Made by a program: the position numbers and the translations under genes
Part shown: one piece after another, positions 7,813-50,151 of the stretch
How the letters are laid out: every line of letters begins with the position of its first letter
How positions within the stretch are numbered: the stretch's first letter is position 1
Source of the DNA: an uncultured Planctomycetia bacterium
GTDB taxonomy: Bacteria > Omnitrophota > Gorgyraeia > 1-14-0-20-64-10
Assembly (NCBI GenBank): GCA_964373805.1
Contig: CAYJWF010000004.1
Coordinates: 1,891 to 65,890, forward strand
DNA: 64,000 nt
Direction of reading: 5' to 3'
The notes under the pieces: model-generated
What the model saw: only the letters and a program-made list of their open reading frames with translations
What the model was told of the DNA's origin: nothing
Database searches by the model: none

Positions 7813-9295
7813 ACTCCTCGTCCCGATCCAACCGAACCTGGACCCTTTGCCCGGAAGAAGACAACGGATACGTCAGCTCCAGCTCCTCGCGCGTCACCGA
7901 TTCCGGTTGAACTTCACGATCCACCTCATAAGCGAGGCCCACCGCCATTCGGTCTTCCGCCGTGGAACGGCGCACGCTCAGGCCCGAAACCGAAGGTCTC
8001 TCGCCCGGCACCTCTACAGGCCGCGCGGGAGACTCCACCCCCAGGGGTCCCACGCGCCAGCCTCCCCCAACCCCTAAACTTCTTTCGGTCGAGGAAAGCC
8101 GCACGTTGGAAAGGAAGTCGCTGCGGCCCAACCGTCGAAGATCGACGGTCCCCTCGATGAGCAGCACGCCGCTTGGCTTGGTGATTTGAGAGTTCTGGAT
8201 CTTTAAGATCGGCCCTTCGCCTCTAAAACGCAGCGTCGCCAGGCGGAATCTCTCCCATCCCAAGGACCCTCCTTCGCTGGAAATCTGGCCTTGGCTTTCC
8301 AGTTGACTTAAGGGGCCGGTCAAGGTGACTCGACCATGAATCGGACCGGAAAGGGTCCATCGCTGAGGTCCAGCAAACCAACGGATCCATCTGTCTAAAT
8401 CGGCCCTTTTAAGCTCCAAGTTCAAGTCCACCGGATAGGGTGGCTTTAAACGAATCCGACCATTCAAAGAGGCCTCTTGCCCCAAAAGCTCCGCCTGCAG
8501 GTGAAGATCGGAACGCTCCACCACCCACCGGACCGTCAGCTGTTCAGGAATTTCTTCCTCCTGGCGCGCCCAGATGGTGATCCTTCCCCCGACCCCATGA
8601 GAAGAAACCTCTTTCTTAAGAACCCCTTCTACCCGCCAGGCTCCTTGGAGTTCGGCCTGTTTCAAGCGGATCGCCTCCCGCGAAAGGGACCATTGGCTGA
8701 CGAAATGACTCCTGGGAAAGTGAGCTCCTTCTTCTACGTTTCTGGCTGCGCCAGCGGCCAGTCTAGGAAAGTCCCGCGCCTCAGCGAGGGGCTCCATCCA
8801 TCCTAAAAGGATCGGCTCCTTAACCGTGCCGCTCAACTCCACCATTCCTTTAAAGAACGGATGCTCCAGGGTGAGCCAACCGTCCCACCCGAGCTGCGAT
8901 GAGTTTTCCTTGGCGTCCTGAGCGGTAAGATGCAAGCGGCCCTGCGCTTCAAGAGGGAGGCCGCCCACCGACAGGGATACCCGAGTCACCGTGATAGAGG
9001 TCACGATACCGTCGCGAAAGAACATCTGTGGATTCTCGAAAGCGCTTCGACTGAAGAGTCGCCAAAGCGATCCTTCCATCTGAAGACGTTCAATCGCCAA
9101 AAAGGAGGGTTTTACGGAAACTCCATAAAGGATCAGTTTCTTGGGAGAAAAGGCCAATCGCTGAATGGATACCGGCGCCTTGAAAAGTTGACTTAAACCT
9201 TGGCTCAACCGAACGCGCCCAACCTGAAGGGCCCAGAAGAATCCTCCAGCGCTCACAAGACTCACGCAGAGAAACGCCCCAAAAAACCGTCTCAA
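7781..9295 (-). CDS. membrane-anchored periplasmic protein, possibly AsmA-like; carries an in-frame repeat element
   Basis: N-terminal TM helix then a 480-aa soluble region; no firm family match; contains repeat R1 encoding [12 protein letters not shown]. Confidence 0.4.
   Translation of the reverse strand: MRRFFGAFLCVSLVSAGGFFWALQVGRVRLSQGLSQLFKAPVSIQRLAFSPKKLILYGVSVKPSFLAIERLQMEGSLWRLFSRSAFENPQMFFRDGIVTSITVTRVSLSVGGLPLEAQGRLHLTAQDAKENSSQLGWDGWLTLEHPFFKGMVELSGTVKEPILLGWMEPLAEARDFPRLAAGAARNVEEGAHFPRSHFVSQWSLSREAIRLKQAELQGAWRVEGVLKKEVSSHGVGGRITIWARQEEEIPEQLTVRWVVERSDLHLQAELLGQEASLNGRIRLKPPYPVDLNLELKRADLDRWIRWFAGPQRWTLSGPIHGRVTLTGPLSQLESQGQISSEGGSLGWERFRLATLRFRGEGPILKIQNSQITKPSGVLLIEGTVDLRRLGRSDFLSNVRLSSTERSLGVGGGWRVGPLGVESPARPVEVPGERPSVSGLSVRRSTAEDRMAVGLAYEVDREVQPESVTREELELTYPLSSSGQRVQVRLDRDEEFVGVEHRKKF
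8733..8800. repeat. R1 repeat element, copy in AsmA-like gene
   Basis: TCTACGTTTCTGGCTGCGCCAGCGGCCAGTCTAGGAAAGTCCCGCGCCTCAGCGAGGGG. Confidence 0.8.
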
Positions 9296-14264: not shown

Positions 14265-15257
14265 TTACGCCTGGGACCCTATGCCGAGGGACTGCTCCAA
14301 GCCTGCCGCAAGGATCGAGACCAAGTCCGGCGAAACTCCGAAACCCTTCAAGATCGCATCCATCGAGAACAGCTCCTGCGCGAAGTAAAGACGTAGAACA
14401 TCCGCCGCGACCCGAACCGGATAAACATGTTCCAGCGGACCCAAATAAGTAACTCGGGAAAGACCATGGATTTTCTGGAAGGCGGTTGTTACCGCATCCG
14501 GGGATCGCTCCGGAACGTAATGAATCCGCCGATTCTCACCGACAAGTCCTTCGGCCAACTCCGATTCCCCCAGCAGAACCAGCCGCCCGGCAAACCGATC
14601 CAGCCTCCGGAGAACCTGGACCAAATCAGCATCTAACGTAGCGGCATCCAGAACAACCGCCTGAATCCCCTCGACGCTTGCCTCCGCCATCGCAACCGCC
14701 ATCGCAATCCCCCGATCCCCTTCCTCTACGTTTCTGGCTGCGTTAGCGGCCAGTCCAGGAAAGTGCCGCGCATCAGCGCGGCCTTCCTCCAGCCCAGAGG
14801 GATTACTTTCTCCCGTGGTACCTGGTTTCGCCTCCCGCTCTGACCCTGAGAAATTTCTTAACAATCGAGGAAGGAATCCCATCACCTTACCAGGAATAGC
14901 CCCCTCCCCACCCCGCCAGCGGGAGATCGTCTCCCGACTCACCGGCTTCCCGCCGTTGTACCCTGCACCTGCCAGCGCCTGAGCCATCCCTTCCTGCGTC
15001 AACCCCAGCCAATCCATCACCTGGCCAAACTCTGTATCACCAGCGACTTCCGAATCCGCTGCATCCTCCTCCAGCCCGGCGAAGGCAGCGGAGGAGCCTC
15101 TGGACCCCCCTGGAAAAGCCGCCTCCAGCTCAGAGCTGGCGGCACTTTCCAGGCCAGCCTGGGCACGCAGCGCAAGGGCAACGGAAGGCCGAACAAGCGT
15201 TAGAGCCAAGAAAAGCCCCAACGAGCTTCGCCAACGGTCCATTCGTTCTCTTCTCAT
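14265..15257 (-). CDS. secreted hypothetical protein of the GLEE-motif family, with embedded repeat and an HTH-like segment
   Basis: Signal-peptide-like N-terminus; several (A/S)GLE(E/Q) motifs; C-terminal ...ILAAGLEQSLGIGSQA; segment GLTQEGMAQALAGAGYNGGKPVSRETISRW resembles an HTH; carries repeat R1. Confidence 0.45.
   Translation of the reverse strand: MRRERMDRWRSSLGLFLALTLVRPSVALALRAQAGLESAASSELEAAFPGGSRGSSAAFAGLEEDAADSEVAGDTEFGQVMDWLGLTQEGMAQALAGAGYNGGKPVSRETISRWRGGEGAIPGKVMGFLPRLLRNFSGSEREAKPGTTGESNPSGLEEGRADARHFPGLAANAARNVEEGDRGIAMAVAMAEASVEGIQAVVLDAATLDADLVQVLRRLDRFAGRLVLLGESELAEGLVGENRRIHYVPERSPDAVTTAFQKIHGLSRVTYLGPLEHVYPVRVAADVLRLYFAQELFSMDAILKGFGVSPDLVSILAAGLEQSLGIGSQA
14712..14800. 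repeat. R1 repeat element, longest copy, in GLEE-family gene
   Basis: CTCTACGTTTCTGGCTGCGTTAGCGGCCAGTCCAGGAAAGTGCCGCGCATCAGCGCGGCCTTCCTCCAG; includes hairpin CCGCGC-ATCA-GCGCGG. Confidence 0.8.
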
Positions 15258-17359: not shown

Positions 17360-17974
17360 TCATCTTTTAGGTCCCTTGCCTTTCACCCTAGATTCTTCAC
17401 CCTTCACTGCCTTTGCCTTTTCCTCCACGGCTCGAACCCGATCCCGAAGACGGGCCGCCTCCTCAAAGGCCTCCGCGGCGACCGCCTTCTTGAGGTTCTC
17501 CTTAAGCCGCGCCAGATCTGTCTCTTCCCCTATGCTTTTAGCGGCATCAGCAGCCCGTCCAGAAAAGTGCCGCGCATCAGCGCGGCCTTCACTTTTCTTG
17601 GCCGCCTTCGGCTGCGAAACGGAAGGACCCTTTCCCACATGTTGGGTGGAACCGTGGATCCGCTTTAACAGGGGAACCAGGTACGGCTCAAACGTCTCGT
17701 AACAGTTCCCGCAGCCAAGCCGACCAACCTTGCGAAACCCTTCGTAAGTCATTCCACACCTGGGGCAGGAAAGCTTGGTTCGCTCGGTCGACTCTCCTTT
17801 AAGCCCGAAGTCGGCGAGGCCGGCCAAAAGGCCTGCTAACCCGAACTCCTGCCCTGCCGCAGTTCCTTTCTCGTGCGCGCAGCTCTCGCAGAGATGGAGC
17901 TCGCGGGTCTGGTCGTCAATGATCTCGGTCAGATGAACCGTCGCCTCGTTTTGTCCACACAGGTCACAGGTCAC
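17360..17974 (-). CDS. mcsA: McsA, activator of protein arginine kinase (zinc-finger / UVR domain)
   Basis: CxxC pairs (CDLCG...CESC; CPRCG...CGNC) and a C-terminal UVR motif (AVAAEAFEEAARLRDRV); carries a partial R1 repeat. Confidence 0.75.
   Translation of the reverse strand: MTCDLCGQNEATVHLTEIIDDQTRELHLCESCAHEKGTAAGQEFGLAGLLAGLADFGLKGESTERTKLSCPRCGMTYEGFRKVGRLGCGNCYETFEPYLVPLLKRIHGSTQHVGKGPSVSQPKAAKKSEGRADARHFSGRAADAAKSIGEETDLARLKENLKKAVAAEAFEEAARLRDRVRAVEEKAKAVKGEESRVKGKGPKR
17533..17600. repeat. R1 repeat element, partial copy (3' half), in mcsA
   Basis: ...CCAGAAAAGTGCCGCGCATCAGCGCGGCCTTCAC; the 33-nt core is identical to the 14712 copy. Confidence 0.75.
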
Positions 17975-19685: not shown

Positions 19686-20803
19686 CTAATCCCCATGGCC
19701 GCCAACCCTACGGCCAACGCGTCCCAAGGTTCCAACTTCACCGGCAGCCGATCGATGTAATAGATCTCCGGTGGCAGCTGAATGAACTGGTACTTCGCCA
19801 AGAGGGTGCACAAACCGAGCCCCAGCCCGCCCCCTAAGAAGGTGCCGAGACAACCAATGAGTAGACCGGCCCAGGTAAAGATCCGACGGATGGAGGCGTT
19901 GGTCGCTCCTAAGGCCTTCAAGATCCCAATCTCCTTCGTCTTCTGAACCACCACGATGAGAAGGGTCGCCACGATGTTAAAGCAGGCCACCAACACGATG
20001 AGGGCCAAGATGACGAACATGGTCACCTTCTCCAATTTGAGGGCCGCAAAGAGATTTCGGTTTAAGTCCATCCAGGTCACCACCCAGTACGGAAACCCAA
20101 GCTTCCGCCGAAGGAGATCCCGAACCGAAGGGGCCTCCAGCGCCGCTTTAAGCCGCACCCCAATTCCAGAGACCCGATCCGGAGTGCCGGCGACTCCCTT
20201 CACCGTCTCGATGGAGGCGAGGGCCAGATTGAGATCGTAGTCGTACATCCCGGTCGCAAACGTGCCCTTGACCTTCATGGGGAACTTGGTGGCCTTCTCT
20301 CCGCCGATCACCGTGATGGAATCCCCGGGTCGAACCCCCCAGCGCCGAGCCAGTTCCGACCCCAGGATTAACTCTCCCGATTGCGGCGGCCAGTACCCTT
20401 CTCTTCGAGAAAGGCGGCTCGCCAACTCCGTCACGGAAGGTTCCCTGGCTGGGTCGATCCCTCTGAGGATGACACCGGTCGCCTCCTTCCCCCGTTGAAG
20501 CAGCACTTGGATTTGGAGGAAAGGGGCCGCCGCCTCCACCTGAGGAATTTCGGTGAGCGTGTTTAAAATGGAATCGACCTCAACGACCCCTCCCTCGGCT
20601 TCAACGATGAGATGTGGATTCGCCCCGACGATCTTCGACTGCAAGTCGGCATCGAACCCGCTCATCACCCCTAACACCACGAGAAGCGCCGCCACCCCCA
20701 AGGCCACCCCCCCCACCGAGATCACCGCGATCACCGAGACAAACGGCTGCGATCGCTTCAACCCCTTCAAATACCTCATCGCCAAAAACAGTTCGTACCT
20801 CAT
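19613..20803 (-). CDS. lolC: lipoprotein-releasing system permease LolC/LolE (FtsX-like)
   Basis: MacB/FtsX-type 4-TM permease with a large periplasmic loop; 396 aa. Confidence 0.75.
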   Translation of the reverse strand: MRYELFLAMRYLKGLKRSQPFVSVIAVISVGGVALGVAALLVVLGVMSGFDADLQSKIVGANPHLIVEAEGGVVEVDSILNTLTEIPQVEAAAPFLQIQVLLQRGKEATGVILRGIDPAREPSVTELASRLSRREGYWPPQSGELILGSELARRWGVRPGDSITVIGGEKATKFPMKVKGTFATGMYDYDLNLALASIETVKGVAGTPDRVSGIGVRLKAALEAPSVRDLLRRKLGFPYWVVTWMDLNRNLFAALKLEKVTMFVILALIVLVACFNIVATLLIVVVQKTKEIGILKALGATNASIRRIFTWAGLLIGCLGTFLGGGLGLGLCTLLAKYQFIQLPPEIYYIDRLPVKLEPWDALAVGLAAMGISWASCLYPAWVAARKQPAEAIRYE

Positions 20804-21288
20804 CCGTGAATTTTACTCTCGATCCAATCCAAGGTATTCCGGAGAAGGGCCGCTACGTCTTCAGCATCTTGGCGAGTGGGTAACCCCTCCGGTCCAATCC
20901 CCGGCAACGCATCTGGATAGCGGGTAGGAATGTAATACTGATCAAGCTTCAGACAGGTCTCTTGAAGCTTTGAAAAGCTGGCATCGAGATCTTGACAAAT
21001 AGCCAATAGCTCACCCAGGGCATGCGATCGAGGAACGGATCGCTGGCGGCTCCGCAAGAAACCCTTTAATGCCTTCTCCACACCTTGTTGAGCATGGAAA
21101 CAAGTCTGATTGTAGATCCCTTTCTCTAGGGCTGCTTCCGCCAACACAAAATCCTCGCGTGCAAACTCCATCCACCTATGCGGCTCGGTCATAGAGGACC
21201 TTCCCTTTATGGGCGATCTCGTCCACCCAAAAGCAATGGTCACTTTTCTCCATCTGAGCCACCTCTTGGGGAGTATAGACGACCACAT
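20800..21288 (-). CDS. HEPN domain protein (toxin component of a HEPN/MNT pair)
   Basis: Rx4-6H-like region and YYIPTRYPD motif; start is probably the internal Met near 21192. Confidence 0.7.
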   Translation of the reverse strand: MWSSILPKRWLRWRKVTIAFGWTRSPIKGRSSMTEPHRWMEFAREDFVLAEAALEKGIYNQTCFHAQQGVEKALKGFLRSRQRSVPRSHALGELLAICQDLDASFSKLQETCLKLDQYYIPTRYPDALPGIGPEGLPTRQDAEDVAALLRNTLDWIESKIHG

Positions 21289-21559
21289 TCAAGCCCACTT
21301 TTGGGTGGGTTAGCTGGAGAATTTCACCGATACGATCGATGAAGCGGCGAGGGGTCTTCTTCACAACGGCCAGATCGATATCGCTCCACTCATGAACATT
21401 GCCTTGGGCCAGGGAGCCGAACAGGATCATGCGCTGCGGCCCGTATTCCCGAACAATGATTCCCATGATCCGCTTCAGTTCCTGCTCAAGCCGTGTTTTT
21501 CGATCCAGGCTCTCTTGATTCATTTTTGTCGGCCTCCGCTGCTCTCGCTTGCACCCCAT
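21176..21559 (-). CDS. nucleotidyltransferase (MNT) domain protein (antitoxin component)
   Basis: GS..G....SDIDL motif of the minimal nucleotidyltransferase fold. Confidence 0.75.
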   Translation of the reverse strand: MGCKREQRRPTKMNQESLDRKTRLEQELKRIMGIIVREYGPQRMILFGSLAQGNVHEWSDIDLAVVKKTPRRFIDRIGEILQLTHPKVGLNVVVYTPQEVAQMEKSDHCFWVDEIAHKGKVLYDRAA

Positions 21560-23732: not shown

Positions 23733-25178
23733 CGGCCTTCCTCGATGCAAAGATAGGGAATCCACCCCGGATTCAAAGCGAGGAACTGAGGAGATCCGCC
23801 GCCCGGCCGGATCGATGAAGCCGGACCACCCGGTGTTGGCGGCGCGAACCACCCAAACCCGGTTTTCAATCGCACGGAACACGCAGGCCTGCAGATGCTG
23901 AAGCGAGGCAGCCGACCGATGAAACCAGGCGTCGTTGGTGATGACCAGGAGCCACCGGGCCCCTTCCCGAACAAAACGTCGAGACAAATCTGGAAAGAGA
24001 TCCTCGAAGCAGATGAGCACACTGAAGGGAAGGACGTCGTGGGTCTTGAGTCTTGAGTCTTCAGTAAAAGGCTGCCGAAAAGTAGCCGGTTGGAAAACGG
24101 TGAATCGACTTCCGGGGGAGAAATTCCCCATTAAAACGAACCGGCGTAGCCATCCAAAAAAGAACTCGAGGGGGAGGTATTCCCCGAAAGGGACCAGATG
24201 AACCTTGTCGTAACGTTCCACGAGATTCCCTTGGGGGTTTAAAAGGCAAGCGCTGTTAAACATCCTTTCGGTACCTGATACCGTTTCAGTAACCGGTGCC
24301 CCCACCAGTAAAGGAGTGTCCGTGGCTTGCGCCAATTTCTGGAGCCGTTCGAAGATCTCGGGGTCCTCCAAGTATCCAGGTACCGCCGTCTCCGGCCAGA
24401 CGATGAGGTCCGGACGGGATTGAGCGGCTTGACCCGTTAACGTTTCGTAGCGATGCCAGATCTCCTCTTGGAAAACCTCATCCCACTTCTCGGTCTGCGG
24501 GATGTTGCCCTGCACCACCGCAACCCTGAAAGACAGTCGTGGGTCGTGGGTCGTGGGTCGCGAGTAAACCTCAAGCTGGTGAATGCGAAAGGAGCCGTAG
24601 GCCAGCGCAGCAAGCAAACAGGCGCCTGCCAACGCTATAGCGGATAGTCCTTTCCTATACGCTGTACGCTGGACGCTATACGCTAACCAAAGGGCCACGT
24701 TGACCAGAACCACGAGAAAAGAGACCCCGTAGACACCGGTCAAATCGGCGATCTGAATGACCGGAATCCAATTCCACTGGGTGTGAGCGATCAGGTTCCA
24801 TCCGAAGCCGGTCAACCAGGTGTTGCGAAGATACTCCAGAAGAACCCACGCCGCCGGCAAAGTGAGAAGGGGTGTACGGTGTACGGTGTGCGGCGTACGG
24901 CGAAGACCACTCACCATTCTCTGGGCGAGCCAGCCCCAGATCCCAAAATACAGAGCCAGGTATCCGATCAGTAAAACCGTCCCGGGAATCGTCACGTATC
25001 CCACCCACCAGATCGTCCCAGCAAAGAAGAGGATCCCGATAAGATAGCTTTGTAGGAAGGCCTTTCTTGGGGAACTTTTCTCCAGCGCAAGCAGCCAAGG
25101 CAGATAGGCCACCCACGCTAGCCACCCCAAATCAAAAGGCGGGAAACTTAAGACGAAAAGAAGGGCAGAGACAGCCAA
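23730..25178 (-). CDS. lnt: apolipoprotein N-acyltransferase
   Basis: N-terminal multi-TM region plus C-terminal CN-hydrolase domain (CFEDLFP); carries three in-frame heptamer tandem arrays and one GGTACCTGATACC palindrome. Confidence 0.85.
   Translation of the reverse strand: MAVSALLFVLSFPPFDLGWLAWVAYLPWLLALEKSSPRKAFLQSYLIGILFFAGTIWWVGYVTIPGTVLLIGYLALYFGIWGWLAQRMVSGLRRTPHTVHRTPLLTLPAAWVLLEYLRNTWLTGFGWNLIAHTQWNWIPVIQIADLTGVYGVSFLVVLVNVALWLAYSVQRTAYRKGLSAIALAGACLLAALAYGSFRIHQLEVYSRPTTHDPRLSFRVAVVQGNIPQTEKWDEVFQEEIWHRYETLTGQAAQSRPDLIVWPETAVPGYLEDPEIFERLQKLAQATDTPLLVGAPVTETVSGTERMFNSACLLNPQGNLVERYDKVHLVPFGEYLPLEFFFGWLRRFVLMGNFSPGSRFTVFQPATFRQPFTEDSRLKTHDVLPFSVLICFEDLFPDLSRRFVREGARWLLVITNDAWFHRSAASLQHLQACVFRAIENRVWVVRAANTGWSGFIDPAGRRISSVPRFESGVDSLSLHRGRP
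24036..24900. repeat. four separate heptamer tandem arrays inside lnt
   Basis: (GTCTTGA)x2.4 near 24044; (GTCGTGG)x3.4 near 24529; (AGCGTMY)x4 near 24640-24690; (GTGTACG)x4 near 24866. All are kept in frame (encode SRLKT, PTTHDPR, AYSVQRTAYRK, RTPHTVHRTP). Confidence 0.7.
24268..24284. repeat. P2 single hairpin GGTACCTGATACC inside lnt
   Basis: In frame; encodes ...ETVSGTER... Confidence 0.7.
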
Positions 25179-25618: not shown

Positions 25619-28606
25619 TCATGCACCATGACATCGTTTGTATTTCCTGCCACTGCCGCAGTAACAGGGATCGTTCCTTCCCACCTTGGGATGTTCCCGT
25701 CGAAATGGGTGGGAGCTCTCCCGCGCTTCGGCCATCGGACCGGCTCCCACTCCCGGAACAAACGGTTCGTCGGTCCCTTCACGAAACGATTCGGGGTTTA
25801 TCAACGAAGGCGTCGGAGTCGCCGCCTTCGGGGCTTCTGGATGAAGGAACTGTGTCGGCTCCAAAACCCGAGGCCTCGTCTCGGTCCGAACCGCTTGGAT
25901 CTTGAAGATAAGCTCCACGATCTCTTGTCGGACCGATTCCACCATCCGGGTGAACATCTGGTACGCCTCGTGCTGATACTCGACCAACGGATCCTGCTGG
26001 CCGTAGACCCGATAGCCGATCCCTTCCCGCAGGTGGTCCATGGCGTAGAGATGATCCTTCCACTTGGTGTCGATGACCTGAAGCATTACCCACTGCTCCA
26101 GCCGCCGCATCGACCCTTCCCCCAATACCGATTCTCGGGCCTCGTAGGCCTGATGGGCGGCGGTGAGGAGGCTCTGCGCCAGATCTTCTCTTCCTATACG
26201 TTTCTGGCTGCGCCAGCGGCCAGTCGAGGAAAGTCCCGCATCAGCGGGGCTCCCCAACTTCGCGAAGTCGGGGATCGCCACCGAAAACCGGCCTTGGATC
26301 GCCTCGGACAATCCGGAGAGATTCCACTCCTCCGGATCTTGATGAGACAGCGCATAAAGATCCAACAATCCCTGGATCGATTCCTCCACCATCTCGAGGA
26401 TCTTAGGCTTCAACTCTTTACCCTCCAAGACCGCCCGTCGCTCCCGGTAGATCACCTCCCGCTGGCGGTTCATCACGTTGTCGTACTCCAAGAGACGTTT
26501 CCGAATCTCGAAGTTGTGCGTCTCCACCCTCTTCTGGGCCGTCTCGATCGCCCTGGAGAGCCACGGGTGTTCGATCGCCTCCCCTTCGGGGATGGCCGCC
26601 TTGGTCCACTCGAGAAGTCGGTTCTCTCCGAAGATGCGGATCAAGTCGTCGTCCAGGGAAAGGTAGAATCGGCTAGAGCCAGGATCCCCTTGTCGGCCGG
26701 AGCGCCCGCGAAGCTGGTTATCGATCCGGCGGGACTCGTGCCGCTCGGTGCCGAGGACGTGCAGACCCTTCAAGCCTACCACCTGGGCATGTTCCGCCTC
26801 CACTTGGGTCTGCACCTTCGGTTCGATCTCCTTCAAAAGCTCGGCCTCGACTTCCTGTGAAAATTCAGGGACCATCTCCGCCGGAGGCGGGCCCTGCGCT
26901 TGCCCGCCCTCATTTTGGCGGGGGGACCCTCCCTGAGCGAGCTGGTCCTTTCGGCGTTTCAGCTCCGCGGCGATGAGGAATTGGGGATTCCCTCCCAAAA
27001 GGATATCGGTCCCCCGCCCCGCCATGTTGGTGGCGATGGTCACCGCCTTGAATCGCCCGGCCTGAGCGACGATCTGGGCCTCCTGCTCGTGGTATCGGGC
27101 GTTGAGGACGTGGTGCGGGATCTGGCGGCGTTTCAGAAGCTCGCTTAACCGTTCCGACTTCTCAATGGAAACGGTGCCCACCAGGACCGGCCGGCCTTCC
27201 CCGTGCAGCTGGGTGATCTCCTCTTCGATGGCTTGGAACTTTTCCCGTTCGGTCTTGTAGACCACATCCGCGTAGTTGGTTCGAATCAAAGTCCGGTTGG
27301 GGGGGACGGTGACCACCTCCAGACGATAGATCTGGTGGAACTCGGCCGCTTCGGTGGAGGCGGTGCCGGTCATCCCTGCCAGCTTATCGTACATGCGAAA
27401 GTAATTCTGGAAGGTGACCGTGGCCAAGGTCTGGTTTTCCCGTTCGATCCGAACCCCCTCCTTGGCCTCGATCGCCTGATGGAGCCCGTCCGACCAGCGA
27501 CGACCCGGCATGAGCCGGCCGGTAAATTCGTCGACGATCACCACCTGGCCGTCCTTGACCATGTAGTCGACGTCCCGCCGGTATAAGGTGTGGGCCCGGA
27601 GGGCCTGGTTGATGTGATGAACGAGGGTGATGTTGGTGTCCTCGTAGAGGTTGCCCACCTGGAGAAGCCCCTCGGCCTTCTTGACACCCTCCTCGGTTAA
27701 GATCGCCGAGTGGGCCTTCTCATCCACGGAGTAGTCCGCGCCCTTCGCCAGTTTCGGAACGATCCGATCGATCTTGAAATAAAGCTCGGTCGACTCCTCA
27801 GCCGGCCCGGAGATGATGAGGGGCGTTCTCGCCTCATCGATCAAGATCGAGTCGACCTCATCCACGATGGAATACGACAATCCCCTCTGGACGCATTCCT
27901 CCACGGAAACCACCATGTTGTCCCGAAGATAATCAAAGCCGAACTCGTTGTTCGTCCCGTAGGTGACGTCGCATGCGTAAGCGGCCTTACGATCCGAGGC
28001 ACCCATCTCGTGTTGAATCGCCCCGACGGTTAACCCTAAGCTTTCGTAGATCGGTCCCATCCAGTTCCGATCCCGTTTGGCGAGGTAGTCGTTCACCGTC
28101 ACCAGATGGACTCCGCGCCCCAAGAGGCCGTTTAAAAAGACGGCCAGGGTGGCCACCAGGGTCTTGCCCTCACCGGTAGCCATCTCGGCAATCTTTCCCT
28201 GATGGAGAACCATTCCTCCGATCAGCTGCACGTCGAAATGGCGCATGTTCACCGTCCGACGGGCCGCCTCGCGAACCAAGGCGAAGGCCTCTGGGAGAAT
28301 CTCCTCCATCGCCCGATTCTCGATCTTTAAGCGACGCTTCCGTTCCCCCTTCAGTGCGTCTTCGTCGTTGGGATCGATGGAATCGCCCAGTGGGACGGTG
28401 CCATCGGAATCGATTCCGCCTCCGAGTTGTGCGATCCGGGCCTTCAGACGTTGACGCAACGCCTCGGCCTTTTCCTTTAATTGGGAATCGCTTACATCCT
28501 TCACCGTCGGCTCCAGGGCGCTGATCCTTGCCACAACAGGCATCAGCCGCTTCAAGAACCGCTCGTTCTGCGAGCCGACCAGTTTATTGAGGAACCAGTT
28601 CAACAT
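25619..28606 (-). CDS. secA: preprotein translocase ATPase SecA
   Basis: DEAD-like motor motifs and C-terminal zinc-binding [14 protein letters not shown]; 995 aa; carries an in-frame R1 repeat in a variable C-terminal region. Confidence 0.95.
26196..26265. repeat. R1 repeat element (RPE-like), copy in secA
   Basis: CTATACGTTTCTGGCTGCGCCAGCGGCCAGTCGAGGAAAGTCCCGCATCAGCGGGG...; same element at 8733-8800, 14712-14800 and partially at 17533-17600. Confidence 0.8.
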
Positions 28607-30199: not shown

Positions 30200-30391
30200 T
30201 TAAGTCTCCTTCACCCCATCCAAGGCGTAACCCCACCAGAGAAAAACGCCAGCCACTGATCCACCTGCCAACAAGCCTATCACATTGAACCGATCCCCAG
30301 CAAGCAGATTCCCAACGCCCGTCGTGGCGAACAGAATCTTCCTGGGGTCGTAAAGACATCGAGCCAAGCTCTCTCGTTGTCGTTTAATCAC
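30200..30391 (-). CDS. small two-TM membrane protein A1 (63 aa)
   Basis: ...KILFATTGVGNLLAG...GLLAGGSVAGVFLWWGYALDG; a paralog (A2) lies at 32200-32409 with the same architecture and a similar AT-rich upstream motif. Confidence 0.5.
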   Translation of the reverse strand: MIKRQRESLARCLYDPRKILFATTGVGNLLAGDRFNVIGLLAGGSVAGVFLWWGYALDGVKET

Positions 30392-30463
30392 AACCCCAAG
30401 TCTAGGGGACTATACCTAATTGTCAATAAATTTTATTTATATACAATAAGTCAGAAAAGGGGG
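30392..30463 (-). promoter_or_regulatory. AT-rich promoter-like island upstream of cassette A1-B1-prfB with ATTGACAA motif
   Basis: Minus-strand sense ...AAATTTATTGACAATTAGGTATAGTCCCCTAGACT...; a similar ATTGACAA -35-like box recurs upstream of A2 (32410-32460) and of the ATPase at 13058-13130. Confidence 0.4.
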
Positions 30464-31810
30464 CTACGGCGCGCCATCGAGAACCAGCCTATTCCTCTGA
30501 GCCTCCTCCAGCCCCGCCGCCAGATCCGGCCCCTCCAATCCGGCCCGATCCATAAGGGGCTGCCGTAAGCTCGACTTCCAGCCCTCCTCCAGCCCGGCGG
30601 TGGTGCGCCACTCTTCGATCAACGGTCGAAACAACTCGTAGGAGATCGTGGGGAGATACATGGTAAACGCTCCGAAGGCTAACCCTTCCAAAGGCTGCTC
30701 CTCCGGGTTTTTCCGCGGGGGCCCTGCCTGTCTCCTTGGAAGTTTTCCCCCAAGGCACTGTCCCAAAAAGTAGAGGGCCAAATCCTCTTGAGTCGGAATC
30801 TTCCCTGCCGGCAAAGAGGTCCGACACGACTCGGCCAAATCTCTTAGTTGGGACTCAAAATGTTCGACGTAGCATCGCACAGCCTTCACAAGGATGCTGT
30901 TTCTAGGCTTCCTACCGAGAGAATCGAGCGCACTGGCAACGTGCCCAATAATTCTACGCGGCGAGTCTGTCCTTGATGCGTAAGCCGGATACGCCACTGC
31001 TAGGAGCGGAACATAGTCTTGCCAGGACAAGCCAGCCGGTTTTCTTCGATCATTCAAGAGCGTCCGGAAGACACTCACCACGGTCAACCTTTCAGGCGCA
31101 GGAGGGACATACTTCTGAAGGACCTCTAAACTCACCGGTTCACCGCTCACTTTATAGAAACGGGTCAGGGCATTGGCGGCGTAGGAGAAAGGAAGCCATT
31201 CCCCAGAAGTCAAAGAAACTCCGTTCTCATCCACCAGACGGCCCGCGTCCCTTAACAATCTCATCCGGTACCCAAGGGAATAGGGGGTAGGATTGTTAAG
31301 GAAATAGCGCAGAGCCTCGTGCGGTGTCGCAAAGGTCAATCCCTGTCGTAGCTCCGGAAGGTCAGGAGGCATCCCCCTTCTCCAAAGAATGAAAATCTTC
31401 TTTCCAGGAGGGGTCATGGCCTGCCGACGGGCGTTTTCTTGGTCGACCAGCTCTGGGAGGCGGTGCTTCCAGAGGGTCTCTTGGCTTACGTTAATGGATC
31501 TAGCAAACTCCCTCCGTTTCAGTTGATCTCCTGGGTGCTTCTGAACTCCCTCGATGATCCGTTGATGGGTGCGCTGCCATCGGGGGCCATGGGGTTTTCC
31601 ATCCTCTGCATCCGAATCGGACCCCAGGGCCTCCTCGAGGCCGGCCAGGTCCGGCCGCTGGCGCAGGAAAAACAGGGACGGTTCTTCAAAACACCTTTTG
31701 GTATAGGCGGTTGGGCCGGCACCGCCCCCATGGCCACAGACAGCCTGCGAGCAGGTCAATAGGGTGAGCGTCAACGTCCAAATGAACCGGCGCATGGCGT
31801 GTGAGATCAA
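30464..31810 (-). CDS. secreted hypothetical protein of the GLEE-motif family
   Basis: Signal peptide; AGLEE motifs; C-terminal ...AGLEGPDLAAGLEEAQRNRLVLDGAP; internal HTH-like stretch REFARSINVSQETLWKH. Confidence 0.45.
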   Translation of the reverse strand: MISHAMRRFIWTLTLTLLTCSQAVCGHGGGAGPTAYTKRCFEEPSLFFLRQRPDLAGLEEALGSDSDAEDGKPHGPRWQRTHQRIIEGVQKHPGDQLKRREFARSINVSQETLWKHRLPELVDQENARRQAMTPPGKKIFILWRRGMPPDLPELRQGLTFATPHEALRYFLNNPTPYSLGYRMRLLRDAGRLVDENGVSLTSGEWLPFSYAANALTRFYKVSGEPVSLEVLQKYVPPAPERLTVVSVFRTLLNDRRKPAGLSWQDYVPLLAVAYPAYASRTDSPRRIIGHVASALDSLGRKPRNSILVKAVRCYVEHFESQLRDLAESCRTSLPAGKIPTQEDLALYFLGQCLGGKLPRRQAGPPRKNPEEQPLEGLAFGAFTMYLPTISYELFRPLIEEWRTTAGLEEGWKSSLRQPLMDRAGLEGPDLAAGLEEAQRNRLVLDGAP

Positions 31811-31909
31811 GTATAGCAGATGAGAGGCTAACGGGCTAGAAGAATACTTGGGCTTGCTTACGACTAACTTAAGCGGTAAAGAGGTAAGAGTTTAGCGTAG
31901 CGAGAGAAA

Positions 31910-32040
31910 TAAGAGCCCGTTCGCCCTGAGCTTGGTCGAAGGGTGAACGGGTGGCGTTCGTGGTTCGACAGGCCTGCCCTGAGCAGCAATCCCAAAGGGG
32001 TCGAAGGGCTCACCACGAACGGCCCTTCTCTCTGTCTCGG
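31910..32040. repeat. R3 nested-hairpin repeat, largest copy
   Basis: CCGTTCGCCC-TGAGCTTGGTCGAA-GGGTGAACGG, then TTCGTGG-...GCCCTGAGCAGC...GGGGTCGAAGGGC...-CCACGAA. Confidence 0.7.
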
Positions 32041-32075
32041 AGAGCTGAACTCTTACAAACAAAGGGCGGAAGGAC

Positions 32076-32195
32076 TTTATCCCTTCGGGGACTTCTGATG
32101 CTGATGTCGGTGGCGGTACTGAGACCAGTAGGTGCAGGCAATCCCTACCAAGGCTATGACCGAGAGGAACAGATAGGTGGCTATCGCTGAATTCA
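32076..32195 (-). CDS. tiny single-TM membrane protein B2 (39 aa), paralog of B1
   Basis: MNSAIATYLFLSVIALVGIACTYWSQYRHRHQHQKSPKG; ATG 3 nt after the A2 stop; His/Gln/Arg-rich C-terminus like B1. Confidence 0.45.
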
Positions 32196-32199
32196 TCCT

Positions 32200-32409
32200 T
32201 TAACTTTTCCTCCCATCCAAGACGTAACCCCACCAGAACAATAGCCAGGCGTTGCTTGCTCCAAAACACAACGTTACCATATCGAAGTTTTTCCAAGCAA
32301 TAAAATTTCCGATCACCGCTGTGGCAAAAACAATCTTGCTCAAATCGTAAAAATACTTGGCTACGTTTTCCTGCTGTCGCTGGGTCACTGAATATTCCTC
32401 CTTACCCAA
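32200..32409 (-). CDS. small two-TM membrane protein A2 (69 aa), paralog of A1
   Basis: ...KIVFATAVIGNFIAWKNFDMVTLCFGASNAWLLFWWGYVLDG. Confidence 0.5.
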   Translation of the reverse strand: MGKEEYSVTQRQQENVAKYFYDLSKIVFATAVIGNFIAWKNFDMVTLCFGASNAWLLFWWGYVLDGRKS

Positions 32410-32451
32410 CCCAGCGTATCCGGAATTTATTATTTTGTCAATATATCTTAT

Positions 32452-32955
32452 TTAAATAAAACCTTCTTCTTTGAGGAGGCGGCGCTTGGCGGCGAGGCCC
32501 CCTTTGGCGGAGTACCCCCCTAAGGTCCCATCACTGGCGATCCCGCTTCGCGGGATTCTCCTTAAACGGTGCACCTTTCGGTGCACGAAAAACTTAGAGG
32601 AAACGACCCGGTGGCAGGGGATCTGAGGCGCCCAGCGGTTTCGTTTCAAGGCCTGCCCCACCGCCCGAGCCGCTTTCGGCTGGCCGATCTGTCTGGCCAC
32701 CCAGGCATAAGTTCGCACCTGCCCCTTGGGAATCTTCAGGATCGCCTCGTATACCTTCCGTTGAAACGGGGTACACTTCTTCCACCACTCCTGCCGATCG
32801 ATCCCATCTCGAATGGGGTCGAAGGGTCGAATCACTACAAGGGGCAGATCCCCACGGGTGATCATCATCGGCTGCCTGTGTCTTGCCACTTCATCCATTA
32901 CCCTATCGAAGTTCCTCTCAGTGAACCTTTCTGATATCTTCTTCACTTTTATCAC
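32452..32955 (-). CDS. ogt: methylated-DNA-protein-cysteine methyltransferase (MGMT/Ogt-like), with a 23-aa insertion in the active-site loop
   Basis: Conserved MGMT C-domain (TPFQRKVYEAI...TYAWVA...PCHRVV ... DGTLGGY). PCHRVV and DGTLGGY are separated by 23 extra residues encoded by two GAA(A)-loop hairpins in the DNA. Confidence 0.7.
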   Translation of the reverse strand: MIKVKKISERFTERNFDRVMDEVARHRQPMMITRGDLPLVVIRPFDPIRDGIDRQEWWKKCTPFQRKVYEAILKIPKGQVRTYAWVARQIGQPKAARAVGQALKRNRWAPQIPCHRVVSSKFFVHRKVHRLRRIPRSGIASDGTLGGYSAKGGLAAKRRLLKEEGFI

Positions 32956-34417
32956 CTTCCTGTGTCTTGTCTGTCTTTAGATGAATCAGGATTCGCTGGG
33001 CGAGTACCGCAGAGATTCCTCGCACCTGGGTGAGATCCTCGGCAGTGGCCTTGCGGATCGCTTCCACCGAACCGAAGAGAACCAAGAGGTCCTGCCGCCG
33101 GCGGGGCCCCACCCCGGGAACATCATCGAGGGCTGAGCTCAGCGCGTGCTTGCCTCGGAGAAGCCGGTGATAGCCAATGGCGAACCGATGGGCCTCATCC
33201 CGGAGCCGTTGGATGAGCTGCAGCGCCTTCGACTGCGGCGGCAAAACGATCGGCTCCTCGTGGCCAGGCAGGAACAGCTGTTCGAACTCCTTGGCGATCC
33301 CCACAGCCGGCAGATCCAGTTTAAGCTCCCTGAACACCTCCAGGGCGGCGTTGAGATGCCCCTTGCTTCCGTCGATCACCACCAGGTCCGGCCTTTTTTC
33401 GGTACCAGGTACCTTTTTAAGAACGGTGCCTGGCACCGTGAGGGGTTCGTATCGCCGCCGGACGATCTCTTTCATCATGGCGTAATCGTCAATCCCGTGG
33501 ACGCCCCTGATTTTAAATCGACGGTACCCATCCTTGAAAGGGACTCCGTCGACAAAGGTCACCATCGACCCGACCGCCTGACGGCCGAAGAGGTTGGAGA
33601 CGTCAAACCCCTCGATGCGCTGGGGCAGCCGCGGCAACTTGAAGATCGATCGTAAGTCGTCCAAGGCCTCGGCCGGGATCAGCCGCCGGGGACGGACGGT
33701 CAGTTGAAGTAAGCCGGCCACCTGATCCCTGAACCTCGCCGCCTCCTCGTAGCGACGGGTCTGGGAGGCCTCGTTCATCTTCCCTTTAAGATCTTCGAGC
33801 ACCTCCTCCTTTTTGCCTTCCATCAATCGGAAAACCTGGGAGAGGTTTTCTCGATAAGCCGCTGGAGAGATCTTTCCTTCACAGGGCGCTGGGCAAAGCT
33901 TGAGATGATAATCGAGACAAGCCCGTTTCGGCAACGTCCGACAGGTTCTAAAAGGGATCACCCGTCGAATGGCGCCGACGGCTTGCCTGAGCAGTTTGGC
34001 GTTGGTGAAGGGGCCGATCGCCTTGATCCCAGACTCGTGGGTCCCCCGCCCAATGAAAAGCCGAGGAAACTCCTCCTCCACGGTGATCTTTAAGGAGGGA
34101 TACGACTTGTCGTCTCGAAAGGAAACGTTGTACTTAGGTTGATGCTCCTTGATGAGGCTCGCCTCGTAGAGAAGGGCCTCCGCCTCCGAGCCGGTCAAGA
34201 TCCACTCCAAATCGTTCGTCTGCTGAATCAGTCGGAGCAGCTTATCGGTGAGCGGCCGACTGGGTTGAAAGTAGCTTGAGACCCTCTTGCGCAGGGAAAC
34301 GGCCTTGCCAACGTACAGGATCTGGCCGTCAACGTCCTTGAAGAGATAGACCCCGGGGCGGTCGGGAAGCTCGCTTAACTTTTTCTGAAGCGCTGGGGGC
34401 ACCGCTCGGCCAGCCAT
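32918..34417 (-). CDS. uvrC: excinuclease ABC subunit C
   Basis: N-terminal GIY-YIG (GVYLFKD...YVGKA), UVR domain, RNase-H-like endonuclease domain and C-terminal HhH; carries a twin-hairpin insertion encoding TVPGTVLKKVPGTEKR. Confidence 0.85.
   Translation of the reverse strand: MAGRAVPPALQKKLSELPDRPGVYLFKDVDGQILYVGKAVSLRKRVSSYFQPSRPLTDKLLRLIQQTNDLEWILTGSEAEALLYEASLIKEHQPKYNVSFRDDKSYPSLKITVEEEFPRLFIGRGTHESGIKAIGPFTNAKLLRQAVGAIRRVIPFRTCRTLPKRACLDYHLKLCPAPCEGKISPAAYRENLSQVFRLMEGKKEEVLEDLKGKMNEASQTRRYEEAARFRDQVAGLLQLTVRPRRLIPAEALDDLRSIFKLPRLPQRIEGFDVSNLFGRQAVGSMVTFVDGVPFKDGYRRFKIRGVHGIDDYAMMKEIVRRRYEPLTVPGTVLKKVPGTEKRPDLVVIDGSKGHLNAALEVFRELKLDLPAVGIAKEFEQLFLPGHEEPIVLPPQSKALQLIQRLRDEAHRFAIGYHRLLRGKHALSSALDDVPGVGPRRRQDLLVLFGSVEAIRKATAEDLTQVRGISAVLAQRILIHLKTDKTQEGDKSEEDIRKVH
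33400..33442. repeat. P2 twin hairpins GGTACCAGGTACC + GGTGCCTGGCACC inside uvrC
   Basis: TTTTTTCGGTACCAGGTACCTTTTTAAGAACGGTGCCTGGCACCGTG; each hairpin reads VPGT in the uvrC frame (TVPGTVLKKVPGTEKR). Confidence 0.85.
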
Positions 34418-39097: not shown

Positions 39098-40693
39098 TTA
39101 CCACTGAGAACTAGCGAAAGGCCACTGGGCCATCCAGAGAACGAGCTGAGTCAACCCATGCGCCAGCCCCGTAAAGCTGGCGACAAAAGGGGCGGCCAAC
39201 CCTGGATGGATCGCCCCTGCTCCTAACAACCCGATTCCGGTGGCCACCAAAAGCGAGGTCCACGGAACGATGAGGAGATTGGCCAACGGGGCAATGGAGG
39301 TCACCAGATGGAAGTGCCAAGCCACCCAAGGCACCACGGCGACCCAGGCCGCCACGGAAGTGGCCACGGCCTGGGCGATCCACCGCCAGAATCGCCCTTC
39401 GGTGTCCCGTTCGGTGTCAGACACCGAAGCAACTTTTATAAAGATGGTGCAGTGTCTGACACCGTCGGTCAGCAACCTCGCCAACCACGGCGCCAAAACG
39501 AGCAGACCCAGAACCGCCGAAAAGGAAAGCTGAAACCCTGGATCGGCCAACGCTCGAGGACCGACCGAGAGGATCCCCAGCGCCGCCAACCCCAGAAAGT
39601 TGATCTGCGGGTGTTCCCTTCCCCGCCACAAACTTAAGGAAAGCCCGATCCCGGTGATCGTAGCGCGAAGGATGGGGGGATCCGCTCCGGTGAGTAGGCC
39701 GTAGACGGCCAGGATCCCGATCACCATCCCAAAGCGGACAGCGCGCGGGATCCGCAGAATCGTCAATCCTATTCCGGCGATGAATCCGATGAGGCCCACC
39801 TGAAAGCCGCTCACCACCAACACGTGAATCGTCCCGGTCCGGCGAAAGGCTTCCCGCAACGAAGAAGGAATCTCTCCGGGGGTCCCTAGAAGAAGTTCTT
39901 CCAGGTAAGCGGCCTCGAGGGGACCCAGCAGGGAACGGCCAAGCTGTTGAAGCTGCCGCCGAAAGGCCGCCACCCATCGTCGATAACGCACCCAGGGTCC
40001 CCCCATCTGCCCAAGAGACGTCATGGAACTCGGATCCGATACCGTGAGAATTCCACACGCCTCGTTCAGCCAAAGCCAGCGGCGCTCATCCCCCCTCACC
40101 CTTTTCCCTCTCCCCTCAGAGGAGAGGGTGGGGGTAAGGGGCCCACGGATCTCTCCGTGGAGGCGCACCCGGTCCCCGTAAGCCAGCGCGACTCCATACG
40201 TTGGGAGCCGAACCAACACCTTGCCGGAGGCCGGAATCCAGCCGTCCCGCTGCCAAACCTCGGTCAAACGGAGCCACCCTTGCCGACGCGCCGGTCCGGA
40301 GGGAGGTTTGGTCCACTCCACATCGCTGGCCATCACTCCTTTGCAAGTAATGGGCCGCGGTGGCTCTGCTAGGTGACGGGCAATGGAATCGGTCGGCATT
40401 TGGGCATCCACGAAGGCCCGGAAAAATCCGAGGGCTCCGATGAGGAACAAGAGAGCCCCGTTCGCCATCACCGATCGATGCCGAATCCAGTAGTAAATTC
40501 CGGCAACAATTCCGACCCCACCCCCAATCGCCCAGACCGGCGGCTGGATCCACCAGGCCAACCCGATCCCACAGGAAAAAGCTGCGGCCACCGCCGCCAG
40601 GGGCGCCCGATGGGTCGGCTGGCCCCCCGCGTTTTGTTTCGTTGGCGAAGCAAAACGAAACTTGGGGGGCTGGGCAACTGGGGATGGATTCAT
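39098..40693 (-). CDS. comEC: competence protein ComEC/Rec2 (DUF4131 plus competence domain, no beta-lactamase domain)
   Basis: Multi-TM ComEC core; the tracked N-terminus is read through repeat R2 copy D, so the true start is probably further in. Confidence 0.7.
   Translation of the reverse strand: MNPSPVAQPPKFRFASPTKQNAGGQPTHRAPLAAVAAAFSCGIGLAWWIQPPVWAIGGGVGIVAGIYYWIRHRSVMANGALLFLIGALGFFRAFVDAQMPTDSIARHLAEPPRPITCKGVMASDVEWTKPPSGPARRQGWLRLTEVWQRDGWIPASGKVLVRLPTYGVALAYGDRVRLHGEIRGPLTPTLSSEGRGKRVRGDERRWLWLNEACGILTVSDPSSMTSLGQMGGPWVRYRRWVAAFRRQLQQLGRSLLGPLEAAYLEELLLGTPGEIPSSLREAFRRTGTIHVLVVSGFQVGLIGFIAGIGLTILRIPRAVRFGMVIGILAVYGLLTGADPPILRATITGIGLSLSLWRGREHPQINFLGLAALGILSVGPRALADPGFQLSFSAVLGLLVLAPWLARLLTDGVRHCTIFIKVASVSDTERDTEGRFWRWIAQAVATSVAAWVAVVPWVAWHFHLVTSIAPLANLLIVPWTSLLVATGIGLLGAGAIHPGLAAPFVASFTGLAHGLTQLVLWMAQWPFASSQW
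40612..40665. repeat. R2 hairpin repeat copy D at the comEC 5' end
   Basis: CCCCCCGCGTTTTGTTTCGTTGGCGAAGCAAAACGAAACTTGGGGGG. Confidence 0.7.
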
Positions 40694-49937: not shown

Positions 49938-50008
49938 TGGGGCTGTAGCGTAAAGGGAGCGCATCTCCATGGCATGGAGGAGGTGAGGGTTCGATTCCCT
50001 CCAGCTCC
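49938..50008 (+). tRNA. tRNA-Ala (anticodon GGC)
   Basis: Cloverleaf folded by hand: acceptor GGGGCTG/CAGCTCC with G3:U70, anticodon loop ATGGCAT, T-arm GAGGG-TTCGATT-CCCTC; coordinates +/-1. Confidence 0.7.
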
Positions 50009-50029
50009 AACAATTTCCATTCAAATACT

Positions 50030-50113
50030 TGGGGATGTGCTGGAATTGGCAGACAGGGGAGTCTCAAAAACTCCTGGGCGCAAGCCCGTGGGGGTTCAAG
50101 TCCCTCCATCCCC
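50030..50113 (+). tRNA. tRNA-Leu (anticodon CAA), type II with long variable arm
   Basis: Acceptor GGGGATG/CATCCCC, D-arm CTG-GAATTGGCAGA-CAG, anticodon stem GGAGT/ACTCC with loop CTCAAAA, variable arm TGGGCGCAAGCCCGT, T-loop TTCAAGT; coordinates +/-1. Confidence 0.7.
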
Positions 50114-50151
50114 ACTCAAATTTCTCCATCCCTCATTTGGGAGGGCTCTTG

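Follow-up and report, generated by a model that had tools for sequence, protein, structure and literature searches.

An in-frame double-hairpin repeat in the active-site loop of a single-domain Ogt from an Omnitrophota bacterium

The 64,000-nt stretch of contig CAYJWF010000004.1 (GenBank assembly GCA_964373805.1, positions 1,891 to 65,890 of the forward strand; an uncultured Planctomycetia bacterium placed by GTDB in the Omnitrophota) that was analysed here, referred to as the window, includes an open reading frame (ORF 32452-32955, minus strand) that encodes a single-domain MGMT/Ogt protein with an in-frame interruption of the active-site loop. The interrupting sequence, designated element A, is probably a copy of a ~60-70 nt double-hairpin repeat that entered ogt in an ancestor, was then inherited vertically, and is translated as part of an Ogt that probably still works. 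The features of the gene and of the insert are as follows.

32452..32955, minus strand: ogt ORF, 167 aa from GTG 32955 (ORF list and Pfam)
32455..32787, minus strand: MGMT/Ogt catalytic domain, residues 57-167
32533..32601, minus strand: element A, 69 nt that code for residues 119-141 (SSKFFVHRKVHRLRRIPRSGIAS) and run in the family's sense orientation
32569..32586, minus strand: hairpin 1, GTGCACC-GAAA-GGTGCAC, perfect 7-nt arms and a 4-nt loop (inverted-repeat search)
32540..32556, minus strand: hairpin 2, ATCCCGC-GAA-GCGGGAT, perfect 7-nt arms and a 3-nt GAA loop, includes GCGAAGC
32596..32604, minus strand: left imperfect direct repeat GTTTCCTCT, V118 S119 S120, matches the conserved left end of the family, CTTCCTCTA
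32533..32541, minus strand: right imperfect direct repeat ATCGCCAGT, I139 A140 S141, resembles the ATC GCC TCC of the empty site

The ogt insert and the repeat family

The Ogt sequence matched Pfam PF01035 (DNA_binding_1) at 101.2 bits (gathering score 27; E 2.8e-29), and the insert divides this match into two stretches. The codon for the catalytic Cys114 is TGC at 32614-32616. Residues P113, C114, H115 and R116 are invariant in the homologue alignments, and it is the Cys of PCHR that distinguishes MGMT from alkyltransferase-like proteins. Through the insert the protein reads ...NRWAPQIPCHRVV SSKFFVHRKVHRLRRIPRSGIAS DGTLGGYSAKGG..., and the coding strand of element A is TCC TCT AAG TTT TTC GTG CAC CGA AAG GTG CAC CGT TTA AGG AGA ATC CCG CGA AGC GGG ATC GCC AGT, with a length that is a multiple of three and no stop codon in the Ogt frame. 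The 23 residues that a sequence-only reading of this stretch had counted between PCHRVV and DGT are present; they replace the usual 'AS', the net gain relative to empty orthologues is 21 aa (63 nt), and the 69 nt involved lie slightly beyond the interval 32520-32590 in which they had been placed. The encoded peptide is strongly basic, with 5 R, 2 K and 2 H among the 23 aa.

Both of the perfect hairpins described in that reading were recovered, the second being the triloop ATCCCGC-GAA-GCGGGAT and not CCCGC-GAAG-CGGG. The loop varies in orthologues (CGAAAG, TGCAGG, CGGACG, CAAATG), so the emphasis placed on its GNRA-like character was given no weight. Perfect hairpins with a stem of at least 7 number 63 in the window as opposed to 29-44 in shuffled sequences, and two such hairpins less than 50 nt apart are expected about once per window by chance; the pair alone is not significant. 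The folding energy of the insert is likewise ordinary (z -1.4 as RNA, -2.2 as DNA), and no relevant match to Rfam 15 was obtained for the whole window at the gathering score or for the site at E<=10, the best match being noise. Hence, element A was judged real because of its membership of a repeat family and its conservation in orthologues, and not because of the hairpins alone.

The family was revealed by a repeat scan of the window, in which four copies of a 68-nt repeat, D1, were listed at 8722, 14714, 17518 and 26184.

8723..8796, plus strand: D1a, in frame in orphan ORF 7781-9295 (minus strand), 22-aa peptide
14715..14787, plus strand: D1b, in frame in orphan ORF 14265-15257 (minus strand), peptide GRADARHFPGLAANAARNVEEG, CTTCCTC on both flanks
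17520..17591, plus strand: D1c, hairpin 1 decayed, in frame in a UVR-motif protein (17360-17974, minus strand)
26186..26256, plus strand: D1d, in frame in SecA (25619-28606, minus strand), residues 786-808, with the element read in another frame

With element A, the window therefore holds five copies in 64 kb, all of them in frame within long ORFs. The SecA copy is extra sequence when compared with the SecA of T. thermophilus (2ipc) and with a 76%-identical SecA from L001 (L labels denote fetched related loci, and P labels homologue proteins). Of the six frames in which the element can be read, several are open, and the copies use at least two different ones, the peptides of the other copies being acidic or neutral and read in other frames. 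Read in the orientation of the element, the common architecture consists of CTTCCTC-TAMGTTTC, hairpin 1 (18 nt, with a stem of free sequence), GTYYAGGARAGT, hairpin 2 (CCCGC-loop-GCGGG) and GCCTCC. Flank, linker and hairpin-2 blocks are common to element A, D1a-d and a set of inverted copies in ogt orthologues (insert B, described below) when these are aligned.

The joint profile of the family was made from the compared sequences themselves, and the relationship was hence retested without this circularity. A hidden Markov model built from D1a-d alone was run over 1.2 Mb, comprising the window and the fetched loci, the latter including 10-20 kb flanks from ~15 Omnitrophota genomes. Its sole non-self matches with E<1 were ogt inserts, each in the expected orientation (L002 B, 3.9e-5; L003 A, 0.014; L001 A, 0.029; L022 B, 0.86). 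In global pairwise alignments of A with D1 and of A with B, z-scores ranged from 4.8 to 12.6 when both sequences had the same orientation and from -0.7 to 3.6, mostly ~0, when one was reverse-complemented.

Insert forms and stem conservation in ogt orthologues

Of the closest 118 Ogt clusters, 106 lack an insert and read PCHRV(V/I)AS-DG(T/S)LGGYS without interruption, with a spacing of exactly 15 residues between the catalytic Cys and GGYS. The remaining 12 have inserts of three kinds. This, together with the homology of the insert to the four other copies in the window, bears out the claim that a hairpin element breaks the active-site loop of Ogt in frame. In relatives the gene order murJ-uvrC-ogt is kept, so the loci are orthologues, and the DNA of inserts A and B was compared in seven related loci. 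In orthologues without an insert, the sequence at the A site is ATC GCC TCC GAC. A long form of A with both hairpins is found in the window, L001, L002 and L003, and a short form lacking hairpin 1 in L004, L005, L006 and L010. Hairpin 2 is intact in six of these eight genes, with one mismatch in L006 and a 3-nt deletion in L005.

Insert B (LGG-PAFGGTSLGRAAWRLPKKL-LGG) lies three codons downstream of the A site in L002, L003, L005, L007 and L022 and is recombined in L006, which carries tandem and recombined insert forms. The alignment and the z-scores place B in the same family as A, in the opposite orientation. The B copy of L002 (1260-1320) has a nested insertion of ~45 nt in the loop of hairpin 2, with the peptide VPAGAGFFRIKALRRRR. 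Imperfect direct repeats of 7-9 bp flank the copies, namely RTY KCC TCN for A, YTR GGM GGC (the reverse complement of GCCKCCYAR) for B and CTTCCTC for D1b. From the bounding repeats of A and B it follows that each copy adjoins a GCCTCC-like motif and is oriented with that motif. The flanking repeat on the element side is conserved across hosts, and the one on the other side is host-like. Such repeats may stem from a target-site duplication or from insertion guided by microhomology with the end of the element.

A third kind of insert, C (ARGSRTTNPSWRV), was observed in the same loop of P0011, P0012 (L126, 500-829) and P0017. Its DNA in P0012/L126 holds an inverted copy of adjacent host sequence (GTGGTGGCTGCGGCT ... 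AGCCGCACCAC), which suggests that quasi-palindromes also form locally at the ogt loop, by snap-back synthesis. On the sequences compared, the active-site loop of ogt appears to be an insertion hot spot.

The age of element A was approached through codon positions. Among the four long-A genes, identity of the host core is 0.82-0.91 at positions 1+2 and 0.46-0.69 at position 3, and that of the element is 0.74-0.91 at all three positions; overall, element identity reaches up to 1.0 (0.74-1.0 at every codon position) as opposed to 0.46-0.73 at third positions of the host gene. Copies of B are 88-97% identical between genomes in which third positions of ogt are 47-73% identical. Over the four long-A copies the invariant nucleotides amount to 26/26 in the stems, 2/6 in the hairpin-1 loop and 8/12 in the linker, and the invariant third-codon positions to 8/8 in the stems as compared with 22/74 (30%) in the host core. 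Every Val-His pair in the A-bearing inserts is encoded by GTGCAC. The A of the window is 81-87% identical to the A of other genomes, and the mean column identity of the all-family alignment is 68%. The window A is thus closer to foreign A copies than the family alignment suggests for paralogues in its own genome, and this speaks for an old insert passed on by vertical descent and not for recent independent insertions. The sequence-only reading would have been refuted by an old loop shared by orthologues whose DNA lacks the hairpins; the insert is old and is shared with L001, L002 and L003, and both stems are kept perfectly there.

Hairpin 1 has wholly different stems in the A, D1 and B subfamilies, and yet 96% of the cells are paired, with six of the seven pairs changed on both sides. 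The covariation score was 0.84, as opposed to 0.22 in shuffles and at most 0.16 with the partner slid, in an ungapped 26-nt alignment that represents about three independent lineages and hence a modest count. RNAalifold recovered hairpin 2 alone from a MAFFT alignment, MAFFT having misaligned hairpin 1.

Activity of Ogt, proposed history and alternative explanations

The sequence-only reading had left it open whether the protein is inactivated or the insert tolerated, and a tolerated loop is favoured by the intact PCHR Cys and by a signature of purifying selection. Neither a frameshift nor a stop interrupts the ogt ORF, every near-invariant MGMT residue is kept, and the insert-bearing orthologues appear from the codon-position identities to have diverged under purifying selection. 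In the alignment with the OGT of M. tuberculosis (4bhb), a gap opens after PCHRVI-GA and closes at G-K-L-T-G-Y, and the insert maps between residues ~132 and 133 of that protein. In an AlphaFold2 model built with 118 sequences, the core has a pLDDT of 91-95, and the insert has a pLDDT of ~77 at a helix predicted with moderate confidence for residues 120-129 (SKFFVHRKVH) and then of <55. The top 41 Foldseek matches of the model were all OGT, MGMT, ATL or SNAP-tag structures with probability 1.00, 4bhb among them. The insert is predicted to sit at the protein surface, in the beta-hairpin turn that follows the active-site strand, and would be a tolerated, strongly basic surface loop; Ogt is thus probably active with the insert as an extra loop.

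According to the proposed history, insertion into ogt took place in an ancestor of an Omnitrophota subgroup, at a GCCTCC-like motif within the codons of the turn that follows PCHRVV, with vertical descent since. Being in frame and stop-free, it would be translated, and, lying in a surface turn, it would leave an Ogt that probably works, with an extra basic loop in which residues 120-129 are predicted to be helical and the remainder disordered. The element would be mobile now or have been so formerly, and CCTCC would be its target. The stems may persist because selection acts on a structure formed by single-stranded DNA or RNA, or because repair corrects the palindromes. A CCTCC-like pentanucleotide is present on both flanks, the purine linker AGGAGA is complementary to that flank, and the hairpins are sub-terminal. 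A likeness to hairpin-guided single-strand transposition of the IS200/IS605 or REP/RAYT types is a speculation by analogy.

A number of observations weigh against this history. The flanking direct repeats are imperfect, and the one on the element side may be part of it. The two ends of the element are not joined by terminal inverted repeats, which leaves two internal hairpins only, and Pfam identified no transposase (including Y1_Tnp) among ~50 ORFs of the window. Outside the window the family was found only in ogt, with no further copy in the ~1.2 Mb of fetched loci. The case for mobility is one that rests on five copies in one genome and the copies in ogt. A D1-type pattern had no match in a metagenome collection; a looser linker pattern had 38 matches in metagenomes, of which the L003 contig is the one true member and the rest do not exceed chance level. 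An exhaustive phmmer search of 1.84 billion representatives with the D1b peptide returned itself and one spurious repeat protein. Further to these, the concatenated D1 peptides had no match at E<=10 among 5.8 billion proteins, and homologues of the D1b host ORF, sought for a clean empty site, were not found, the protein being an orphan. The tree of the Ogt core (72 aa) does not discriminate between a single insertion followed by losses and several insertions. In the AlphaFold2 model the pLDDT is <50 for residues 138-147, around DGTLGGY, and the active-site geometry of the insert-bearing Ogt thus remains a low-confidence prediction. Finally, conservation of the stems above that of silent sites is not what a relic that is selfish only and stays at one locus should show, and hints at function or a repair bias.

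Function is the core of one alternative, in which the element, irrespective of its origin, is now a domesticated nucleic-acid structure whose folded mRNA or single-stranded DNA acts, for instance, in ribosome pausing at the active-site loop, in mRNA stability or in protein binding. The invariance of all 26 stem positions while silent sites of the host are near saturation (22/74) would fit this, as would the 88-97% identity of B copies at 47-73% third-position identity of ogt and the preservation of hairpin 1 through changes of both arms, a behaviour that palindromes in uvrC (below) share in swapping both arms between genomes while keeping the linker. However, a structure with such a role is missing from 106 of the 118 orthologue clusters, the short forms of L004, L005, L006 and L010 lack hairpin 1, and the copies occur in either orientation relative to the host mRNA. 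There is also no Rfam match and no exceptional folding energy, and intrastrand template-switch repair can keep palindromes perfect with no need for selection. This explanation is considered unlikely. Far more so is that of a protein loop, old and specific to the lineage, which is retained for its amino acids and has incidental hairpins. A loop of that type, for example a basic one adding DNA contacts, would account for a strongly basic insert common to several orthologues in Ogt proteins that lack the canonical N-terminal domain. But the insert is equally conserved at the three codon positions and its Val-His is always GTGCAC, which is not the pattern of selection on protein, the peptides of the other copies are acidic or neutral and in other frames, and none of the eight A-bearing genes encodes the same peptide by different, non-palindromic codons.

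Formation on the spot, by replication template switching that repeatedly makes quasi-palindromic inserts in fragile loop codons without any transposed family, would account for three kinds of insert within ~8 codons, for the inverted copy of neighbouring host sequence in kind C and for the tandem and recombined forms of L006. It is nevertheless very improbable for A and B, which share flank, linker and hairpin 2 with four copies in unrelated genes, a result that snap-back cannot yield, and which have no inverted copies of neighbouring ogt sequence. It is scarcely credible, in turn, that the insertion killed the enzyme and left a decaying pseudogene or a protein with a new non-catalytic role. 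The insert does lie 4 residues after the catalytic PCHR, beside the GGY wall of the alkyl pocket, model confidence is low at residues 138-147, and ogt is also fused to an antitoxin fragment; against this, no frameshift or stop is present, the near-invariant MGMT residues are all retained, and insert-bearing pairs show 0.82-0.91 identity at positions 1+2 as opposed to 0.46-0.69 at position 3. Three further candidates were rejected: an intein, as the insert is far too small and has no splicing motifs; a translational bypass element, as the insert is in frame with no stop; and an assembly artefact, as the same insert is present in independent assemblies of several genomes.

A broader view, which is put forward only tentatively, is that an Omnitrophota clade harbours undescribed hairpin-defined elements that have no terminal inverted repeats but a pair of sub-terminal hairpins, target CCTCC, lie in frame in essential genes and have actively maintained stems, with the ogt loop repeatedly remodelled. 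The stems would then be maintained via ongoing movement that recognises single-stranded hairpins, or through an acquired intragenic function, and two of the three kinds of ogt insert would be the same element in opposite orientations.

Neighbouring features and relation to known repeats

The ogt product as annotated publicly (P0001) starts at M30 and has 138 aa. GTG 32946 (MKKISERF...), with AAGGTGAT just 5' of it, is a likelier start than GTG 32955. The nearest homologues are one-domain MGMT proteins of ~95 aa, several of them named as Omnitrophica/Omnitrophota, and the N-terminal domain of canonical Ogt/MGMT is missing here, as PDB matches cover no part of the full-length enzymes before residue 73. 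Like canonical Ogt, Ada-C and MGMT, the protein has the PF01035 domain, the PCHR active site, the Asn hinge (NRW), the GGY loop and the C-terminal helix; unlike them, it has one domain, the 21-aa insert after PCHRVV and a Phd antitoxin fragment at its N-terminus.

32821..32946, minus strand: remnant of a Phd/YefM antitoxin (N-terminal half), residues 4-45, in the same frame as the MGMT domain and continuous with it

The Phd-like character that the sequence-only reading had seen in the N-terminus was borne out by a match to Pfam PF02604 (PhdYeFM; E 0.035, 14.3 bits, below the cut-off of 29.8, covering profile positions 11-41 only) and by BLASTP of residues 4-45 against the Phd of L001 (36% identity over 42 aa, E 4e-11). 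In L001 an intact Phd and a PIN toxin are encoded directly upstream of ogt, and no toxin gene follows in the window. These comparisons identify the segment as a remnant of a phd/PIN toxin-antitoxin pair and not as a member of the Phd/YefM family. The tail of UvrC in the window (32918-32970, …KTDKTQEGDKSEEDIRKVH) is ~17 aa longer than in orthologues and overlaps the start of the ogt ORF, which would be consistent with deletion of the remaining phd/PIN pair. On the other side of ogt, a 2.6-kb block between ogt and a release-factor gene is absent in L001. In this block, a direct repeat of ~150 bp (30200-32410), whose copies are spaced by 1997 nt, coincides with a pair of small paralogous ORFs. 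The one scanned, 32200-32409, matches DUF6722, and the pair flanks an orphan 448-aa ORF (30464-31810). The UVR-motif gene that hosts D1c adjoins an ATP:guanido phosphotransferase gene (16187-17230).

A second palindrome family (GGGGTCWGACCCC, GGTACCWGGTACC, GGTGCCWGGCACC) is present in frame in CysRS, the IspD-IspF linker, LeuRS, Lnt and UvrC. With ~0.2 occurrences expected in 1.45 Mb, the 13-mer GGGGTCWGACCCC was counted 23 times, always in the window or in loci of close Omnitrophota relatives.

2123-2152: AAAGGGGTCWGACCCCTTT-type palindrome in CysRS, translated in frame, peptide GKRGLTPLD
3622-3651: AAAGGGGTCWGACCCCTTT-type palindrome in the IspD-IspF linker, translated in frame, peptide GKRGQTPFD
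24266-24306: AAAGGGGTCWGACCCCTTT-type palindrome in Lnt, translated in frame
47790-47834: AAAGGGGTCWGACCCCTTT-type palindrome in LeuRS, translated in frame
33392-33437, minus strand: uvrC double-palindrome insert, GGTGCCAGGCACC-GTTCTTAAAAA-GGTACCTGGTACC, peptide TVPGTVLKKVPGTEKR

The uvrC site is polymorphic and in frame, with GGTGCC-A-GGCACC ... GGTACC-T-GGTACC in the window, GGGGTC-A-GACCCC twice in L007 (GGGGTCAGACCCC), GGTCWGACC three times in L005 and an empty site in L006; both arms differ between genomes and the AT-rich linker is kept.

Several other features of the window were recorded. A segment of ~1.1 kb (13139-14280) is bounded by 20-bp direct repeats, GACTTACGCCTGGGACCCTA, and its ORFs have no Pfam match. 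Two palindromes of 46 nt that share 98% identity (13172-13217, 14138-14183) lie just inside these repeats, with more diverged copies at 40623-40668, at the start of a ComEC-like ORF (39098-40693), and at 60109-60154. A c-di-GMP-I riboswitch match at 63753-63865 (plus strand; 36.6 against a gathering score of 35 bits) overlaps two GGTGCCWGGCACC palindromes and may be real or caused by the hairpins. The ORF at 50029-50895 (plus strand) has a weak LAGLIDADG_3 match, its 5' end overlaps tRNA-Leu (50031-50115), and tRNA-Ala (49938-50011) adjoins it. At 20800-21559 (minus strand), adjacent ORFs for a HEPN-domain and a nucleotidyltransferase-domain protein form a toxin-antitoxin-like pair within a row of housekeeping genes.

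Among known repeats, the Rickettsia palindromic elements (RPEs) are palindromic repeats of ~100-150 bp that lie in frame in many housekeeping genes and are compatible with fold and function (PMC10969869). As in RPEs, the repeats here are short, palindromic, dispersed in the genome and in frame in unrelated genes, SecA and Ogt included. Unlike RPEs, the element is 60-70 nt in size, has two separate short hairpins instead of one long palindrome and resides in Omnitrophota; the stem of its hairpin 1 is free to change in sequence, and its stems exceed silent sites in conservation. The double-hairpin element may thus be called RPE-like in behaviour, by likeness of description.

Miniature inverted-repeat transposable element (MITE)-type repeats such as Correia, ERIC and Nezha are small, non-autonomous and structured, have short direct-repeat flanks and give rise to occasional in-frame fusions (PMC10969869). 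The element described here is also small and structured with short direct repeats beside it, but its flanking repeats are imperfect and one of them is probably part of the element, no parent insertion sequence or transposase was seen in the window ORFs, and a classical MITE was rejected for want of terminal inverted repeats.

With REP, BIME and REPIN repeats and their RAYT, and with IS200/IS605-derived repeats, the element shares a hairpin unit, the lack of terminal inverted repeats and a short flanking motif. AGGAGA, beside the foot of a hairpin, is complementary to the flank TCCTC, in the manner of the guide and cleavage sites of IS608. The element differs from these repeats in that all copies are intragenic and scans of the window ORFs showed no Y1/HUH transposase. 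REPs are extragenic by definition and have a conserved GTAG-type head; assignment as a REP was rejected because the copies are intragenic and no RAYT is present among the window ORFs scanned. The left end of the present element has no obvious guide complementarity. In the library that was searched, no paper dealt with these sequences or with such elements in Omnitrophota.

The colonisation of genes by in-frame palindromic repeats is best documented in Rickettsia (PMC10969869). If the proposed history is true, RPE-like colonisation would extend to a free-living or episymbiotic candidate phylum and to another, much smaller element. For annotation, inserts of this type split Pfam matches and could pass for assembly errors or pseudogenes in metagenome-assembled genomes. 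The ogt orthologues with zero, one, two or rearranged inserts would constitute a natural experiment on the tolerance of an active-site loop to insertion, and the excess conservation of the stems raises the question of whether such elements are only tolerated or are maintained.

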